IMG/VR virus record: IMGVR_UViG_2648501392_000008
DNA from: a virus
Taxonomy: Duplodnaviria; Heunggongvirae; Uroviricota; Caudoviricetes
DNA: 15,547 bases
Reading direction: 5' to 3' (one strand)
Shown here: positions 6,005 through 15,547 of the stretch, piece after piece
Layout of the letters: every line of letters begins with the position of its first letter
Position numbering within the stretch: position 1 is the stretch's first letter
Made by a program: the position numbers and the translations under genes
Notes under the pieces: generated by a model
Seen by the model: the letters and a program-made list of their open reading frames with translations, nothing else
Databases searched by the model: none
Told to the model about the DNA's origin: nothing

Positions 6005-6300
6005 ACTGTTTTCAGTTTGTGTGCGGATGTGCTTTCGATAACCCGATTCAGCGCCTAATTATGTTGCGTGTTTTGATGTCGGGTTCTTCAGACGGTGAAG
6101 GCGAGAGAGTTATTGATCATCAGGTGCTTGCTGATTTCTGCTGTTGTTCTAAGCAAGCGATATTCAGGGAAACCCTGGCACTGGAAAGAGCTGGTTATCT
6201 TCATATCCGAAAAATTGCAACGCTTACTATTGATGCAAAAGCCAGACTACAACCTGCGCGTGGCTACACAATTCTCATGCTGCGGAAGGAGGTTGTATGA
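6001..6300 (+). CDS. Hypothetical winged-helix-like DNA-binding protein (99 aa), possibly replication-associated
   Basis: GTG start overlapping the upstream stop (GTGA) with GGGAGGTG SD; LADFCCCSKQAIFRETLALERAGYLHIRK looks like a wHTH recognition region. Assignment is weak. Confidence 0.4.
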   Translation: MNCFQFVCGCAFDNPIQRLIMLRVLMSGSSDGEGERVIDHQVLADFCCCSKQAIFRETLALERAGYLHIRKIATLTIDAKARLQPARGYTILMLRKEVV

Positions 6301-7304
6301 GCCGTTACGCCCCCACACCGGAAGTTATGGCTATTGGTCAAATTAATATTTCCGGCAATGTTACACCTGCGACCTGGTGGAAATATATTCGACTACCCAG
6401 TGGGCGTCCGGATGCGACGGCTATCGCTCTGCTTTCAGAGATCGTTTACTGGTACCGCCCGACAGAGGTCAGGGATGAGCACACCGGAGCGTTGCTGGGA
6501 TATCGCAAGCGTTTTCAGGGCGACAAACTGCAAAGAAGCTACCAGGCGTTTGCTGAGCAGTTTGGTTTCGGGAAAAGGGAAACCGCAGATGCGCTGAAGC
6601 GTCTGCGCGATGCAGGGTTTATTACTCTGGATTTACGCACGGTGGAAATGCTCGATGGGGTGAAATGCAGCAATATTTTGTTTGTCGGGATCAACCCACA
6701 GGCAATTGCGGCCATCACCACACCTTCTTCTGTTTCGCCAGAAAGTAACAGCAATAATGCAATCAGCGATACAGCTATTACGTTAAAACGGAACACCCCC
6801 CGACGTCATAACGGAACAGGGGATACGCCGAATGTTGATACAAATACAGAGATTACTACAGAGATTACTACAGAGATTACTACAGAGATTACAACGGAGA
6901 CTAAAAACACTATTGGCGCATCCGCTGACGCGTCTGCACCAGCGCGTTCTGCCAGACAGGAATATTCACCGGAATTTGAACAGGCCTGGCAGGAATATCC
7001 CAAACGTGCTGGTGGTAATTCAAAATCCGCCGCTTTTAAAGCCTGGAAAGCCCGAATCAGGGAAGGTGTGACACCCGAAACCATGCTCGACGGTGTGAAA
7101 CGCTATGCCGCCTGGGTGCGTGTCTCTGGAAATACCGGTACCCAGTTCGTGAAGCAGGCGTCGACGTTCTTTGGTCCGGATCGTCATTTCGAAGAATCCT
7201 GGGAAGTTCCTGCGGTATCTGCAGCCAGACGCGAGGACCCGTACTTCAAAGCCAGTTACGACAACGTGGACTACAGCCAGATCCCGGAAGGATTCAGGGG
7301 GTGA
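6297..7304 (+). CDS. Phage replication initiation protein (lambda O-like / replisome organiser) with origin iterons inside the gene
   Basis: GGAAGGAGG SD before ATG 6297; N-terminal wHTH-like region; C-terminal EFEQAWQEYPKRAGGNSKSAAFKAWKARI motif typical of enterobacterial prophage replication proteins; 12-bp iterons within the coding sequence. Confidence 0.7.
   Translation: MSRYAPTPEVMAIGQINISGNVTPATWWKYIRLPSGRPDATAIALLSEIVYWYRPTEVRDEHTGALLGYRKRFQGDKLQRSYQAFAEQFGFGKRETADALKRLRDAGFITLDLRTVEMLDGVKCSNILFVGINPQAIAAITTPSSVSPESNSNNAISDTAITLKRNTPRRHNGTGDTPNVDTNTEITTEITTEITTEITTETKNTIGASADASAPARSARQEYSPEFEQAWQEYPKRAGGNSKSAAFKAWKARIREGVTPETMLDGVKRYAAWVRVSGNTGTQFVKQASTFFGPDRHFEESWEVPAVSAARREDPYFKASYDNVDYSQIPEGFRG
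6846..6893. repeat. Iteron array: 4 tandem copies of 12-bp acagagattact (candidate phage replication origin)
   Basis: Direct tandem repeats at 6846-6857, 6858-6869, 6870-6881 and 6882-6893 (last copy 1 mismatch), encoding TEIT repeats in the O-like protein. Confidence 0.7.
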
Positions 7305-9746: not shown

Positions 9747-10742
9747 GTGACCGTGAGAGCACTACTGACCCCTGAAATTGCCCCGCGTATGGGGATCGTA
9801 TTGTTCAGACCCGGTTCAGAGCTGATGCCCCTGTTTATGCAGGGGCGTGTCCTGCTGGAGCCTGAGCCGGAACGTTATTCATCTTTTGCCAGTGGTGCCG
9901 TTCCGGCAGCATCACAACCGCTGGCGGATGATCCTGCCGTTCGGGTCGTGTTCCGCAATGAGGCAGTGATCCGTCGTGCTGGTGGCGTGGAATGTCTTGA
10001 AAGCTGGTTACTTCGTGAAAAAGGTTGCCAGTGGCCTCATTCCGACTGGCACAGCGAGAACATGACCACAATGCGACACGCGCCGGGCGCAATCCGTCTG
10101 TGCTGGCACTGCGATAACCAGCTGCGCGATCAGTTCACGGAACGGCTGGAATCAATGGCAACGGATAACTGTGCCCGCTGGGTGTTGTCTGTTGTGCGTC
10201 GGGATCTCGGTTTTGATGACAGTCACGTTGTGACAATGCCGGAACTGTGCTGGTGGCTGGTTCGTAATGATCTGGCGGATGCCTTACCGGAAAGTGCAGC
10301 CCGTAAGGCACTGAGATTACCGAAGCCTGTTGTGCCGTCTGTCACCCGGGAGAGTGACCTTGTGCCTTCGGTTCCGGCCACCAGCATCATCCAGAATAAA
10401 GCGAAAAAGGTGCTGGCGCTGAAAGTGGATCCGGAGTCGCCGGAGTCTTTTATGTTACGCCCAAAACGTCGCCGCTGGGTTAACGAAAAGTACACGCGCT
10501 GGGTTAAGACGCAGCCGTGTGCATGTTGTGGAAAGCCTGCTGATGATCCCCACCACCTGATAGGCCACGGTCAGGGGGGAATGGGTACAAAAGCGCATGA
10601 CCTCTTCGTGCTGCCTTTGTGCAGAAAGCATCACGACGAGCTGCATGCGGATACCGTGGCATTTGAAGAGAAGTATGGCTCCCAGCTGGAGCTGATATTT
10701 CGTTTTATCGATCGTGCGCTGGCAATAGGCGTGCTGGCCTGA
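9747..10742 (+). CDS. DUF968-family prophage protein (YdfU-like) with a C-terminal Cys/His HNH-like motif
   Basis: C-terminal CACCGKPADDPHHLIGHGQGG...LCRKHHDELH; position between KilA-N/RusA and Q is typical. Start uncertain (GTG 9747 or GTG 9753 with a GAGGTG SD). Confidence 0.6.
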   Translation: MTVRALLTPEIAPRMGIVLFRPGSELMPLFMQGRVLLEPEPERYSSFASGAVPAASQPLADDPAVRVVFRNEAVIRRAGGVECLESWLLREKGCQWPHSDWHSENMTTMRHAPGAIRLCWHCDNQLRDQFTERLESMATDNCARWVLSVVRRDLGFDDSHVVTMPELCWWLVRNDLADALPESAARKALRLPKPVVPSVTRESDLVPSVPATSIIQNKAKKVLALKVDPESPESFMLRPKRRRWVNEKYTRWVKTQPCACCGKPADDPHHLIGHGQGGMGTKAHDLFVLPLCRKHHDELHADTVAFEEKYGSQLELIFRFIDRALAIGVLA

Positions 10743-10759
10743 TTTTGTGGAGAAAGTTG

Positions 10760-11131
10760 ATGCGTGATATTCAAATGGTTCTTGAACGTTGGGGGGCATG
10801 GGTGGCAAATAATCACGAGGATGTGGAATGGTCATCTGTTGCTGCAGGTTTTAAGGGATTAATTCCTTCGAAAGTAAAATCCCGCCCGCAATGTAGCGAT
10901 GACGATGGCCTGATCATTAGCTCTGCGATGACAGTTCTTAAGAAAAAGGAACCGTATCAATACGAATTACTGGAAATGTATTATGTGTATGGGGTTACAT
11001 TACGGGTGTTGGGGGTAAAACTGGGGATATCACTTAATCAGGTTGTTATCAGACTGCAGAAAGCTGAAGGGTTTATTGACGGTTGTCTGGCAATGTTGGG
11101 GGTATCTTTAGAAATTGATTGTTACATATAG
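10760..11131 (+). CDS. Late-gene antiterminator Q (QuuD/phage-21 type)
   Basis: ATG 10760 with GGAGAAAG SD; the N-terminus MRDIQMVLERWGAWVANNHEDVEWSS matches the recalled N-terminus of DLP12 QuuD. Confidence 0.8.
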   Translation: MRDIQMVLERWGAWVANNHEDVEWSSVAAGFKGLIPSKVKSRPQCSDDDGLIISSAMTVLKKKEPYQYELLEMYYVYGVTLRVLGVKLGISLNQVVIRLQKAEGFIDGCLAMLGVSLEIDCYI

Positions 11132-11168
11132 TAATAAATTCAATCAAAGTAAATAATCATATTTTATT

Positions 11169-11205
11169 ATAACCTCCTGATGATACCTGTTCATTGGGAG
11201 GTTAT
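11169..11205 (+). promoter_or_regulatory. 9-bp inverted repeat (ataacctcc ... ggaggttat) that would sequester the SD of the downstream 205-aa gene
   Basis: Perfect 9-bp arms at 11169-11177 and 11197-11205 with a 19-nt loop; the right arm contains GGAGG 5 nt before ATG 11207. Confidence 0.35.
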
Positions 11206-11206
11206 T

Positions 11207-11824
11207 ATGGATAAAAATGTAGAGCATGTATTAGTTGATGCAATTGAAAATAAGCAATCTTTAACAGTCGTTTACTTAGGAGGGAGCCAGCCCGGAACAT
11301 TAAGGAATATTTCTCCGATTAGTATAAATGGGGATAAATTGCGGGCAAGATGCCATAGTTCTGGAGCAGTAAAGGTTTTCAATCTTGGGAAAATACAGTT
11401 ACCCAGTGACTCCTGCGCGGTATCTATGCACTATGGAGATTTAGAAGTTAAAGCTTATGAGACGATGCAGAGCGTAAATGACAACTTTCATGCCCTTTAT
11501 CCTGAAGGACGATGGGGTGTTGATTTTAATGAGCATCGCTTTGCTTTATTTGATTTTTTTAAAAACGGGAAACGAAAAAAAACGGCATTTATGGCAATTG
11601 AGTTCAGGGAAAGAGATGAAGAGAAAATAATAACAGGTGTAACAATTGATATTGGTATATCTGGAACAGTGATTTCTGAGAAGTCCCGAATCCCAAAAAG
11701 ACGACCATGGGTAGTGGTTGGTCCCGAACACGGAGAATACAGTACTTATTCAACTTTGGACAAGGCTGCTACAGCGTTTTTTGAGAGGCTTTCGTTGATA
11801 GCATCCGGCCTGGAAGATAATTGA
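11207..11824 (+). CDS. Uncharacterised cargo (moron) protein, 205 aa, with a WYL-like N-terminal region
   Basis: Strong SD (GGGAGG) before ATG 11207; AT-rich codon usage unlike the flanking phage genes; followed by an intrinsic terminator. The N-terminal block SLTVVYLGGSQPGTLRNISPISINGDKLRARCHSSGAVKVFNLGKI fits the WYL-domain pattern by eye. No other domain recognised. Confidence 0.55.
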   Translation: MDKNVEHVLVDAIENKQSLTVVYLGGSQPGTLRNISPISINGDKLRARCHSSGAVKVFNLGKIQLPSDSCAVSMHYGDLEVKAYETMQSVNDNFHALYPEGRWGVDFNEHRFALFDFFKNGKRKKTAFMAIEFRERDEEKIITGVTIDIGISGTVISEKSRIPKRRPWVVVGPEHGEYSTYSTLDKAATAFFERLSLIASGLEDN

Positions 11825-11953
11825 TTTTATGTTTGGTATTCAGAGTTCGCCGTGCTTAAGAAAGTCAAGATTCTAAAAATACTGAATGAGCTACTTGTGT
11901 TATAACAAAAATGCTATTAGTGTGTTAAGAGTGGTTACTTCGCCACACAACTT

Positions 11954-11978
11954 AAACCCGCCACTGAGCGGGTTTTTT
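11954..11978 (+). terminator. Rho-independent terminator after the 205-aa gene
   Basis: aaacccgc-cactga-gcgggttttttg: 5-8 bp GC stem, 6-nt loop, 6-T run. Confidence 0.7.
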
Positions 11979-12076
11979 GTACCTGTAAACTTGGTGCAGT
12001 ACAGTAAACACGCTGGTGGTCGTGAATACTGACTTTTTATCTTGCTGGCTTTTTAGACAAGAGTTATTGGTATGTC

Positions 12077-12298
12077 ATGTTAACCAGAAGGGAAAAAGAC
12101 ATGCTAAAACAGCAAGATATGACCGAAACCGCCAGAGTGGTGTTTAATGAATTGAGCGTCACCGAACCGGCGACAGTCGGGGAGATTGCGCAGAATACTT
12201 ACCTTTCACGCGAACGCTGCCAGTTAATACTGACCCAGCTGGTTATGGCGGGTCTGGCAGACTATCAGTTCGGTTGTTACAGACGCCTTCCGCAGTGA
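12077..12298 (+). CDS. Small putative winged-helix/HTH DNA-binding protein (73 aa; alternative start at 12101)
   Basis: ORF ending inside an intrinsic terminator; ATVGEIAQNTYLSRERCQLILTQLVMAGLADY resembles a wHTH recognition region. Best SD (AGAAGGGA) precedes the ATG at 12101. Confidence 0.45.
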   Translation: MLTRREKDMLKQQDMTETARVVFNELSVTEPATVGEIAQNTYLSRERCQLILTQLVMAGLADYQFGCYRRLPQ

Positions 12299-12308
12299 AG
12301 GCTTTTTT
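12285..12308 (+). terminator. Rho-independent terminator overlapping the stop codon of the small HTH gene
   Basis: gccttc-cgcagt-gaaggc followed by tttttt; the TGA stop lies at the loop/stem junction. Confidence 0.65.
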
Positions 12309-12448
12309 ATTTGTGGTAAATGGGCGGTTGGTGGGTGTTAGGGGCACCCACCAGCCATCTGCTCATGCGTTGGGTTCACAAGCAAACCTCAGGCCCACTG
12401 CTTTGCGCAAAAGCAGAATGAGCCTATCAGAGACAGGCTTAATGATCC

Positions 12449-13525
12449 ATGCTTAATACTGTAAAAATATCCAGTTGTGAGTTAATCAACGCCGACTGCC
12501 TGGAATTTATCCGGTCGTTACCCGAAAATTCTGTTGACCTGATAGTCACGGACCCGCCGTACTTTAAAGTGAAGCCTGAGGGCTGGGATAACCAGTGGAA
12601 GGGCGACGATGATTACCTGAAGTGGCTGGACCAGTGTCTGGCGCAGTTCTGGCGGGTGCTGAAACCTGCCGGAAGTCTTTACCTGTTCTGTGGTCATCGC
12701 CTGGCATCTGATATCGAAATCATGATGCGTGAACGCTTCAGTGTGCTGAACCATATTATCTGGGCGAAGCCGTCCGGACGCTGGAACGGGTGCAACAAGG
12801 AAAGCCTGCGGGCGTATTTTCCGGCCACAGAACGCATTCTGTTCGCGGAACATTATCAGGGGCCGTATCGTCCGAAAGATGATGGCGATGAGGCGAAGGG
12901 CAGGGCACTGAAACAGCATGTGATGGCCCCGCTGATTTCTTACTTTCGTGATGCGCGTGCTGCTCTTGGGATAACGGCAAAACAGATTGCAGATGCCACA
13001 GGAAAGAAAAACATGGTGTCGCACTGGTTCAGTGCCAGTCAGTGGCAGCTACCGAACGAAAGCGATTATCTGAAATTACAGTCGCTGTTTGCCCGGGTGG
13101 CAGAAGAGAAACATCAGCGGGGAGAACTGGAAAAGTCCCATTACCAACTGGTCAGCACATACAGTGAGCTGAACCGGCAGTATATGGAACTGCTGAGTGA
13201 ATATAAAAATTTGCGGCGGTATTTCGGTGTGACGGTGCAGGTGCCGTACACCGATGTGTGGACGCATAAACCGGTGCAGTACTATCCAGGGAAACATCCG
13301 TGCGAAAAACCGGCAGAAATGCTGCGGCAGATAATCTGCGCGAGCAGTCGTCCGGGTGACCTGGTGGCGGATTTTTTCATGGGTTCTGGCTCAACCATAA
13401 AAGCAGCTATGGCGCTCGGGCGTCGTGCAACTGGTGTTGAACTGGAGGCAGAACGTTTTGCGCAGACCGTTAAGGAGATTAGTCACATCCTTACATGCTC
13501 AATTGATGACGGGAAGGATGGATAA
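12449..13525 (+). CDS. Beta-class N6-adenine/N4-cytosine DNA methyltransferase (YhdJ-like), apparently an orphan
   Basis: SVDLIVTDPPYF (motif IV) at the N-terminus and DLVADFFMGSGSTIKAAMALGRRATGVE (motif I, FxGxG) near the C-terminus, i.e. the beta-class permuted order as in E. coli YhdJ. No restriction endonuclease gene is adjacent. Confidence 0.85.
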   Translation: MLNTVKISSCELINADCLEFIRSLPENSVDLIVTDPPYFKVKPEGWDNQWKGDDDYLKWLDQCLAQFWRVLKPAGSLYLFCGHRLASDIEIMMRERFSVLNHIIWAKPSGRWNGCNKESLRAYFPATERILFAEHYQGPYRPKDDGDEAKGRALKQHVMAPLISYFRDARAALGITAKQIADATGKKNMVSHWFSASQWQLPNESDYLKLQSLFARVAEEKHQRGELEKSHYQLVSTYSELNRQYMELLSEYKNLRRYFGVTVQVPYTDVWTHKPVQYYPGKHPCEKPAEMLRQIICASSRPGDLVADFFMGSGSTIKAAMALGRRATGVELEAERFAQTVKEISHILTCSIDDGKDG

Positions 13526-14744
13526 AGATATGGTCAGTTCAGGCTGTGAAGCAAGTAGACAGATAAGGCTGCAATAAAAACTGACAATAGTAAAATAGCT
13601 TTTTCCCAGGTAGTCATGAATACGATCTCTTAAAGCGCCCGCTGATACCAGCGGGCAATACATACTGGCATTAATGTTAAGTTCAGGGATAATTCATCGT
13701 ATTTTGTGGTACGACGCTATCAATATTAATAAACAGTATTTTTCATGTAAAATTTCTGTTTTTTTGATCTGATTCTCGTTTCCTGGGTTATGATGTTGTT
13801 GTGAACCATGCTGTTGAATGATAATGTTCGGGTATAAAATTGTTGCTGATATGTAGCGCAGTGAGCGGGTGGTATTTCTGTTGCTGAGTGTACGGATACA
13901 GTGCTTCCCTCCCTCAGCGGGGGGCAGGTGTGCTGTGGTTTTAGAGACACCGGAAACGAGAATGATGCGGGTTTGCTGGTGCCGGGATAGAGTCGCCGGA
14001 GGTCATGACATAGAGCAAAAAAGGAATGTGCATGCAAATACACACCTCTTCGGAGAGCTCTTCTTTATATGGATGAGCCTCAAGGTCAATAGTTTATCTG
14101 TTATGTATTCATATGTTGTTACTTATATAATCCATACGGGCATATCATCAGTACACACATACTATTATGGCATTTTATTTTTGTTTTAACTGAATTCCCG
14201 GGGCACTCTTTTTGATTTCTGATAAGGAACCAGAATTTTCTGTTAAATGGTGTCACGTTGTAAATGGTTAATGGAAGCAGCTTATTATCCATAATCACAC
14301 CTGAGTTAACAGGTGTGAGAATACTTCCGGGTGGCAGGAACACATCTGACTGATACCAGATTATCAACTTTATTTTACACCATACAGTTGAAAACGTTAT
14401 TCCGCTTGATGGGCATATCACTGTGTCAATAACTATCCATTCCATCTTTTAACCTTCTCGGTACACATTGCTTTCGATTGTTTTGCTAAAAATCATAGTC
14501 AATAAATCAGTGTAACTCATTGATAAAGATCGTTTTCTTTGTCTTCCTGGGGTTTTCTTTTCTAATTTTGTATCACTTTGGTTCAAGTTGTTTCATTTTT
14601 TGTAATACAAATTAGCAGGATGAGCGGGAATATAAAAAAATCGGATGTTTTTGTAATGGATATTATTTTTTGTAAAATAATGTATTTTTATTTAAATCTC
14701 TATCAGAAAAGAATTTATTGTTCCTTTATATGGTGGAAAAGGTC

Positions 14745-15547
14745 ATGGTATTTAAACACTACGATGTGGTCAGGGCGGCGTCGCCGTCAGACCTTGCGGA
14801 AAAGCTGACACACAAACTGAAAGAGGGCTGGCAGCCATATGGCGGACCGGTTGCCATTACGCCGTACACACTGATGCAGGCGGTGGCTATTGAAGGAGAG
14901 CCACAGGTCGGCCCTTCATCTGAGCCGGACTGGTTCTACGTGGTTGTGCTTGCCGGACAGTCCAACGGCATGGCCTACGGTGAAGGGCTTCCGTTACCGG
15001 ATTCTTACGATGCTCCGGATCCGCGCATTAAACAGCTGGCGCGCCGCAGCACGGTAACTCCGGGTGGAGAGAGTTGTACGTATAACGACATCATCCCGGC
15101 TGACCACTGCCTGCATGATGTGCAGGATATGAGTACGCTGAATCATCCGAAGGCAGACCTGAGCAAAGGGCAGTACGGCTGTGTCGGCCAGGGCTTACAT
15201 ATTGCCAAAAAACTGCTTCCGTATATCCCGAATAACGCGGGGATCCTGCTGGTACCATGCTGTCGTGGTGGTTCGGCATTCACCCAGGGCGCGGAGGGGA
15301 CATTCAGTGCGGACACGGGGGCCAGCCAGGATTCGGCACGCTGGGGTGTGGGTAAACCGTTATATCAGGACCTGATTGCGCGCACTAAAGCTGCATTACA
15401 GAAGAACCCGAAAAATGTGTTGCTGGCGGTGTGCTGGATGCAGGGAGAGTTTGACATGAGCGCCGCCACCCACGCACAGCAACCTGCGCTGTTTACAGCC
15501 ATGCTGACACAGTTTCGTGCTGACCTCTCCGTGTTTAACGCGCAGTG
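14745..15547 (+). CDS. nanS: Prophage sialate O-acetylesterase NanS-p-like protein (DUF1737 N-terminus plus SASA/SGNH esterase), 5' part only; continues beyond the window end
   Basis: Translated by hand from ATG 14745: MVFKHYDVVRAASPSDLAEKLTHKLKEGWQPYGGPVAIT...WFYVVVLAGQSNGMAYGEGLPLPDSYD... contains the GQSN esterase motif and the NanS/YjhS-like context seen downstream of stx in Stx phages. Not in the ORF track because there is no stop inside the window. Confidence 0.75.
   Translation, partial: MVFKHYDVVRAASPSDLAEKLTHKLKEGWQPYGGPVAITPYTLMQAVAIEGEPQVGPSSEPDWFYVVVLAGQSNGMAYGEGLPLPDSYDAPDPRIKQLARRSTVTPGGESCTYNDIIPADHCLHDVQDMSTLNHPKADLSKGQYGCVGQGLHIAKKLLPYIPNNAGILLVPCCRGGSAFTQGAEGTFSADTGASQDSARWGVGKPLYQDLIARTKAALQKNPKNVLLAVCWMQGEFDMSAATHAQQPALFTAMLTQFRADLSVFNAQ

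Follow-up and report, generated by a model that had tools for sequence, protein, structure and literature searches.

We describe here a gene for a WYL-family protein without a helix-turn-helix (HTH) motif, carried by an Escherichia coli prophage. The stretch of DNA analyzed, which we refer to as the window and which is 15,547 nt long, is part of a lambdoid prophage with the gene order LexA-like CI repressor, Cro, replication genes, RusA, KilA-N, DUF968/HNH, antiterminator Q, the WYL gene, a small winged-helix gene, and an N6/N4 DNA methyltransferase. The WYL gene occupies 11207..11824 of the plus strand, encodes 205 residues followed by a stop codon, and matches phrog_8498 over its full length (E 2.9e-126); PHROGs 8498 and 31886 are both described as of 'unknown function'. 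The protein is identical to WP_000360285.1, for which RefSeq gives the product name "hypothetical protein" or, in newer records, "WYL domain-containing protein". We found no paper in the literature that mentions WP_000360285; a paper on Gifsy-1/RtcR and a Vibrio island review name WYL solely in other contexts, and a paper on P2/P4 hotspots has it in the reference list only.

Elsewhere in the window, the prophage repressor is extended at its C-terminus in the manner of LexA-like repressors that cleave themselves, and is annotated as XRE family in the prophage of E. coli S88. The replication region includes a 335-residue open reading frame (6297-7304) with a tandem peptide repeat, (TEIT)x4, near 6830-6880, and the underlying DNA repeat may represent origin iterons inside an O-like initiator gene. 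The segment 3' of the methyltransferase (13526-15547) is AT-rich and contains short open reading frames only and no tRNA genes predicted by ARAGORN, and we note that the S88 and UPEC 26-1 prophages have Met/Ile and Arg tRNAs at this position after the methyltransferase, where the window has none.

The region from 11100 to 12000, which includes the WYL gene with its leader and downstream spacer, is 100% identical to the S88 prophage and 99.9-100% identical in the remaining top-listed complete E. coli genomes. It is present over at least 80% of its length in 51 of 5426 complete E. coli genomes, and full-length Q with its 75-bp spacer is found in 74 of the 5426. The gene is rare in this species (51-74 genomes, about 1%). 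Among the viral contigs of IMG/VR there are 42 copies 98-100% identical to the E. coli gene, one of them truncated, together with three distant copies, and a plasmid collection searched with the gene gave zero matches. A search of Rfam with window positions 10700-12500 gave nothing significant.

Start codon, leader, and selection

An AT-rich open reading frame had been predicted at these coordinates, and this is confirmed by a GC content of 0.396 and a GC3 of 0.320, compared with GC contents of 0.50-0.56 for the neighboring DUF968, HTH, and methyltransferase genes; that of Q is low too, at 0.42. A longer open reading frame beginning at the in-frame ATG at 11180 was considered and rejected, since in the diverged UPEC 26-1 allele this ATG does not share the reading frame of the gene, and we conclude that the true start is at 11207, which is also the RefSeq start codon. 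The strong Shine-Dalgarno sequence of the original prediction is present as GGGAGG at 11196-11201, five nucleotides 5' of the ATG, but it is buried in a predicted RNA hairpin (11169..11205, plus strand) with a 15-bp stem and a 7-nt loop, in which 11169-11183 pairs with 11191-11205. The 3' arm, which holds the GGGAGG, stops one nucleotide before the ATG, and the 99-nt leader has a minimum free energy of -23.4 kcal/mol with a z-score of -2.96. The hairpin is retained in the second, 76%-identical allele, with one C-G pair changed to U-G, two wobble pairs changed to Watson-Crick pairs, and one mismatch, and these largely pair-preserving changes are suggestive of a conserved structure in a comparison of two sequences. 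Possible roles of the hairpin are to restrict translation from read-through transcripts, to stabilize the 5' end, or to act as a weak terminator with a U-rich tail. A consensus scan for sigma-70 promoters found none convincing for the WYL gene.

Selection was assessed from the two E. coli alleles, those of the window and of UPEC 26-1, the latter being present also on a metagenome contig. The two proteins are 70.9% identical, with a dS of 0.81 and an overall dN/dS of 0.225; the regional values are 0.13 for the WYL domain, 0.23 for the C-terminal domain, and about 1.2 for the linker between them. The gene is thus real, and both of its domains are under purifying selection. A hitch-hiking or decaying reading frame that serves no function in E. 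coli would fit with the scarcity of the gene and with the sequestration of its Shine-Dalgarno sequence, but because of the selection data, obtained from two alleles that are both intact, we regard this as highly improbable, and it is also at odds with the identical or near-identical sequences in 42 IMG/VR contigs and dozens of genomes, and with the hundreds of intact family members of the same length.

A WYL barrel with a putative ligand face

The N-terminal 66 residues (11207..11404, plus strand) comprise a helix followed by a WYL beta-barrel. The WYL pattern had been proposed for approximately the first 60 residues, and both sequence and structure bear this out for residues 8-64. These residues align with positions 5-66 of the 70 in the Pfam WYL profile (PF13280) with a score of 16.5 bits and an E-value of 0.0085; this score is below the gathering threshold of 21.8 bits, and the same profile matches 48 of 73 relatives at E<=0.1, the best at 1.2e-4. 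When the PDB was searched with the single protein sequence there were no matches, whereas a profile of the WYL part matched WYL proteins only, namely DriD (E 6.5e-5), CapW (0.02), BrxR (0.04), and PafC (0.25). The model is a five-stranded Sm/SH3-like barrel, nearest to solved WYL domains.

Six residues, Y23, S27, R33, K44, K56, and F58, are positioned on the likely ligand face. Across an alignment of 73 family sequences, R33, K56, and F58 never vary, and conservation of Y23, S27, and K44 is 90% or more. DriD contacts single-stranded DNA through Tyr168, Ser172, Arg178, and Arg176 (PMC9186387), and the first three of these align with Y23, S27, and R33 in an alignment that covers residues 5-38 only; the fourth, R176, aligns with the variable T31 and is not conserved. 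In the Pfam pattern, K44, K56, and F58 correspond to the WYL-motif tyrosine and the "R.F" motif, and on this basis they are probably the counterparts of DriD Tyr192, Arg204, and Trp206. The domain is therefore a WYL barrel with a conserved basic and aromatic putative ligand face.

The protein begins just seven residues before the WYL-associated helix, and the model has a single short helix ahead of the barrel. Searches of Pfam and NCBIfam for an HTH gave no matches, with noise only from NCBIfam. The barrel is followed by a linker of residues 67-85 (11405..11461, plus strand), which is variable and modeled at low confidence, with pLDDT below 50 for residues 69-78.

A family-specific C-terminal domain

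The remainder of the protein, residues 86-205 (11462..11821, plus strand), is an alpha/beta domain specific to the family, and residues 80-205 when modeled separately give a pLDDT of 84.4 and a pTM of 0.73. The model has a helix, three strands, a disordered loop of about 35 residues that is charged (both acidic and basic) and of low confidence, two further strands, and a long helix. The conserved positions are G102, W103, L114, K119, G121, P167, A187, and F191, together with basic residues around the "KNGK" and "R.RPW" motifs; W168, next to P167, is invariant only in a five-sequence alignment.

The C-terminal part had been described as matching nothing recognizable, and profile and fold searches agree. 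Sequence profiles of the domain matched nothing in Pfam and only noise among PDB sequences (E>=0.16, Csx28 among them), and the model found no match below E 0.04 in the BFVD viral fold library. A word-based profile search with the C-terminal domain by itself found it solely in WYL-linked relatives or fragments of them, and we conclude that the domain is new as far as similarity can be detected. Neither profile nor fold comparisons (PHROG, PDB, BFVD) matched the protein to a virion or lysis protein; such a match, with no SH3-like WYL fold, would have spoken against the original prediction, and neither was seen. We considered whether the domain could be a WCX or dimerization domain, and rejected this since no DriD, PafBC, CapW, or BrxR chain appears among its fold matches.

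A further model, raised in the original prediction, is a sensor-effector fusion, in which ligand binding by the WYL domain would unleash the C-terminal domain as a cryptic effector, either toxic or enzymatic, leading to abortive infection. The two domains are obligately linked, the C-terminal domain has basic patches, and certain relatives have, as fusions, hydrophobic segments that seem to span the membrane or an additional 150-residue domain, all of which would suit such an arrangement. However, the residues conserved in the domain (G, W, L, K, G, P, A, and F) include no acidic, histidine, serine, or cysteine set that could form a catalytic site; the histidines present in most relatives are absent from the E. 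coli protein, and there is no fold match to a nuclease, NADase, pore, or kinase. We therefore give this model a low probability. Because there are neither conserved catalytic residues nor an HTH, neither a classical effector nor a DNA-binding regulator is evident.

A cargo site between Q and the late leader

The genetic context of the WYL gene is best seen by comparison with PPyecE_EH1910, a phage with the same type of Q and the same downstream genes. Relative to it, the window has about 790 extra base pairs between the Q stop codon (11131) and a conserved block that starts at 11924 on the plus strand (GTTAAGAGTGGTTACTTCGCCACACAACTTAAACCCGCC...) and leads into a terminator at 11956-11978. At the same site PhiR40_1 has a minus-strand gene for a 148-residue protein, with a weak, sub-threshold match to a lipoprotein signal, followed by the same conserved block. 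Horizontal acquisition of the WYL gene, as first suggested by its codon usage, is thus substantiated both by the insertion and by the different cargo in PhiR40_1. The gap between Q and the late leader (11132-11923 in the window, 1042-1080 in L009, and 926-1550 in L016) is a cargo hotspot that is empty in PPyecE_EH1910 and is occupied by the WYL gene in the window and in UPEC 26-1.

The Q gene itself (10745..11131, plus strand) is of the Pfam PF06530 type (E 1.5e-47). Only the 74 genomes with either WYL allele contain the 3' two-thirds of this Q and the 75-bp spacer, and UPEC 26-1 has a diverged version of the Q and WYL pair; because this part of Q and the spacer are found only with WYL alleles, we conclude that part of Q and the WYL gene travel as one AT-rich module. 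There is a mosaic breakpoint inside Q at about 10920, and in hundreds of E. coli genomes the match to this Q is confined to its first ~60-177 nt.

A putative late promoter and leader are located at 11895..11955 (plus strand), with a -35-like TTGTGT at 11895 followed by the conserved block (GTTAAGAGTGGTTACTTCGCCACACA) from 11924. The four phages with this Q type that we compared (the window, UPEC 26-1, PPyecE_EH1910, and PhiR40_1) all have a -35-like hexamer, TTGTGT, TTTACA, or TTAGTG, 28-31 nt before the block. As the block is shared despite the differing cargo, and as these hexamers precede it, the late promoter and a short leader probably begin just 3' of the cargo, which would place the WYL gene between Q and the late promoter.

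The sole strong intrinsic terminator near the WYL gene is at 11956..11978 (plus strand), 132 bp past its stop codon, where ACCCGC and GCGGGT are predicted to form a hairpin followed by six T residues, resembling a late-leader terminator of the tR' type. It had been taken to be the gene's own terminator, but it belongs to the phage backbone: sequences with 92-100% identity are present in many lambdoid phages that do not have the WYL gene, and it is annotated as a terminator in SfV and Ayreon. SfV has a different type of Q with its own promoter-like sequence, and is common to the window only from the terminator onward. The suggested linkage with the downstream HTH and methyltransferase genes is likewise lost, since both are present in PPyecE_EH1910, SfV, phiP27, and several Stx2a phages without the WYL gene. 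These two, a 73-residue winged-helix protein (12077-12298; phrog_331, with weak matches to TrmB and MarR) and an N6_N4 methyltransferase (12449-13525; PADLOC MTase_II, E 9e-161), are backbone genes rather than partners of the WYL gene. The methyltransferase looks like an orphan, as no gene for a cognate restriction enzyme is evident among the annotated neighbors.

The position of the WYL gene invites a counter-defense role, in which the protein is made together with Q during lytic growth and masks or soaks up single-stranded DNA or another WYL ligand, such that host responses triggered by single-stranded DNA stay off; the responses that might be targeted are the derepression of immune operons by CapW- or BrxR-type regulators, and RecA/SOS. 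The gene is the last after Q and 5' of the putative late promoter, and in both E. coli alleles it is inherited along with the 3' portion of Q; its WYL domain is closest to those of regulators of immunity and DNA damage that sense single-stranded DNA, and a sponge or decoy would have no effector domain, as is the case here. However, stoichiometric binding of bulk single-stranded DNA is a demanding mechanism, the fold matches are at noise level, and an anti-defense gene would not be expected to have relatives in chromosomal integron arrays and defense islands, or membrane-anchored variants, both of which are described below. On balance we consider counter-defense unlikely, though a serious alternative.

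Relatives and their genomic contexts

An exhaustive HMM search of 1.84 billion representatives identified 954 clusters of relatives at E<=1e-3, of which 608 are at <=1e-10 and 191 at <=1e-30, although the weaker tail of the 954 may contain proteins matched through the WYL part alone. Among the best 150 clusters most proteins are about 190-210 residues long and nearly all match over both domains. Named sources are mostly marine and environmental Gammaproteobacteria, with genera including Spongiibacter, Pseudoalteromonas, Leucothrix, Vreelandella, Nitrincola, and Dokdonella, and there are further members in a tubeworm endosymbiont, a Pseudoalteromonas phage, and a cyanophage. No defense-protein model in PADLOC-DB 2.0 was matched, with only weak matches to generic Cas-associated WYL models (E 0.0014-0.0066). 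The family thus consists of a WYL domain without an HTH joined to a C-terminal domain of its own and has no described function, the WYL assignment itself being already in RefSeq.

Some members have additional parts. Three proteins (P0203, P0219, and P0220) have an N-terminal hydrophobic stretch, a putative transmembrane helix as judged from sequence, followed by a charged, apparently coiled-coil segment, and another (P0167) has C-terminal zinc ribbons and hydrophobic segments. Phage PY3 gp2 and P0145 have an extra C-terminal extension of 150-170 residues, which we call domain X, and which in Pseudoalteromonas luteoviolacea is a separate gene immediately 3' of the family member. Domain X is about 150 residues long (L012, 768-1223; L002, 2006-3115, residues ~200-369; P0145, residues ~200-356), is marked by the motifs WYF.VPY.FR.ALDIK and MGWD..KN.MY.GS, and has no match in Pfam, PADLOC, or the PDB. 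It is not present in the E. coli insert.

We inspected about 12 genomic contexts, and a scan of species-representative genomes gave four loci. A conserved partner gene was looked for and rejected, as the neighbors of 10 relatives are mutually unrelated by BLASTP, with domain X the sole exception. Several relatives are in prophages, between the large terminase and Rha (L006 and L063) or adjoining AntA (L014). Others adjoin an integrase, as in L015 and in phage PY3, and in the latter a LexA-like repressor lies on the other side. The family member of three marine prophages (L013, L061, and L062) is directly 3' of an HTH gene of 138-139 residues that is divergent from Cro and the replication genes, and whose product is weakly CI-like, with a sub-threshold match to Pfam Phage_CI_repr (E 0.007).

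These neighborhoods raise the question of whether the protein is a co-factor of the prophage switch, sensing single-stranded DNA and, having no DNA-binding domain, contacting a repressor, antirepressor, Q, or RNA polymerase so as to tune induction or late timing to DNA damage or replication. The neighbors are often phage regulators (the CI-like HTH of L013, L061, and L062, Rha in L006 and L063, AntA in L014, the LexA-like repressor in PY3, and Q in E. coli), and PafBC and DriD show that WYL domains loaded with single-stranded DNA are able to control transcription. Nonetheless, the neighbors vary from phage to phage, and such junctions are also classic insertion sites for morons; members in integron cassettes have no phage switch, and the repressor of the E. 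coli prophage is LexA-like by its C-terminal extension, and if it does cleave itself, then no extra sensor would be needed. We see a role in the switch as improbable but a serious alternative, to much the same degree as counter-defense.

Two of the relatives are in arrays that look like sedentary chromosomal integrons because of their repeats, their many toxin-antitoxin pairs, and the presence of PDC-M34A/B. In the first (L004, 900-16588), twelve attC-like repeats of ~107 nt (..CTAACAA...GTTAG..) separate small genes on the same strand, many of them toxin-antitoxin pairs; one repeat stops 12 nt 5' of the family member, and the candidate defense pair PDC-M34A/B is two genes 5' of it. In the second (L007, 9087-15700), the family member is the first gene after an integrase fragment, and the next repeat comes after a second gene. 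The repeats of the two arrays are ~107-112 nt, and in both the family member shares a cassette with a second, unrelated gene. These relatives, and not the E. coli copy, are therefore in attC-bounded, unidirectional arrays of the integron-cassette kind. A further relative, in a metagenome-assembled genome of Leucothrix mucor (L064, 1968-4883), has directly 5' of it a PDC-S15 FRG-domain protein and a DUF262/GmrSD_N-RiboL-PSP HEPN pair (NsnA/PD-T4-2-like), with a NERD/zinc-ribbon protein 3'. Known or candidate defense genes are thus beside the family member in two of about 12 contexts, and, as a tally over about a dozen contexts rather than a test of enrichment, the distribution is that of a mobile accessory gene involved in conflict.

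Interpretation

Taking these observations together, the broad reading is one in which the WYL gene encodes a ligand-sensing accessory protein for conflict or regulation that acts by binding, to which we give a probability of roughly 55%. In its more specific form, the best explanation is that the protein is a stand-alone, non-catalytic sensor of nucleic acid that is carried as mobile cargo, and we judge this to have about even odds. The WYL domain would bind short single-stranded DNA, or less likely single-stranded RNA, arising in infection, replication, or DNA damage, and the C-terminal domain would then drive oligomerization or contact with a partner, so that action would be by binding rather than by cleavage or recognition of an operator. 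The ligand proposed here is suggested by the alignment with DriD over residues 5-38 only.

What such a sensor would do for the prophage is a more tentative matter. The role that we favor is a protective one, in which the lysogen or host is shielded from other phages through superinfection exclusion or defense, because relatives are in chromosomal integron arrays, beside defense systems, and after CI-like genes, and because some have membrane anchors, although we hold this role with rather less than even confidence. Against it, no effector domain is evident through which binding would stop a phage. Furthermore, the E. coli gene is coupled to Q in the terminal part of the early-right operon, which fits expression in lytic growth as well as in a lysogen. 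More speculatively, the E. coli protein may be a representative of a large unrecognized class in which an HTH-less WYL barrel that senses single-stranded DNA is joined to a new output domain, forming a one-gene conflict module spread across prophages, integrons, and defense islands; it would then be either a new single-protein anti-phage system or the first phage decoy for the single-stranded DNA alarm read by regulators of the CapW, BrxR, and DriD types. This is an attractive possibility but a somewhat doubtful one.

The family is of interest in that it retains the WYL sensor, whereas one uncharacterized domain replaces both the DNA-binding and the dimerization or output domains, and the gene moves alone on mobile elements. 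Its function, once known, should reveal how a nucleic-acid signal gives an outcome without transcription or an obvious enzyme, and whether prophages use such sensors for protecting the host, for blinding host immunity, or for timing induction. The practical value today is modest, as the gene is in about 1% of complete E. coli genomes and RefSeq already records the WYL domain.

Comparison with known systems

WYL domains are known mainly as ligand sensors within transcription factors, through which the appearance of single-stranded DNA turns on operons for immunity or DNA damage. DriD, PafBC, CapW, and BrxR share a wHTH-WYL-WCX organization, whereas the protein described here has neither the wHTH nor the WCX. 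WYL1, the Cas13d accessory protein, begins with a ribbon-helix-helix and acts alongside a Cas effector, and Pif1-type proteins are helicases with a WYL domain; neither partner domain is present in the prophage protein, and there is no CRISPR context. It differs also from Hfq and other Sm-like proteins in that its motifs are of the WYL type rather than Sm1/Sm2, and Hfq does not have the additional C-terminal domain. The C-terminal domain can be compared with the frataxin/CyaY-like alpha-beta sandwich (also seen in PsiB, YjbR, and AcrIIA11), albeit with marginal scores, 8-12% identity, and a disordered insertion of 35 residues, and the likeness of the model is one of topology and not evidence of kinship.

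Parallels in genomic organization are to be found among the morons and exclusion genes of lambdoid phages, such as lambda rexAB 3' of cI, bor, and the Stx genes 3' of Q. Like these, the WYL gene is AT-rich cargo at a regulatory junction, with other cargo at the same site in related phages, and in the three marine prophages its homologues come directly after the weakly CI-like HTH gene, much like rexAB after cI in lambda. The resemblance is nonetheless one of position, as the protein has no relation in sequence or fold to Rex, Bor, or Stx.
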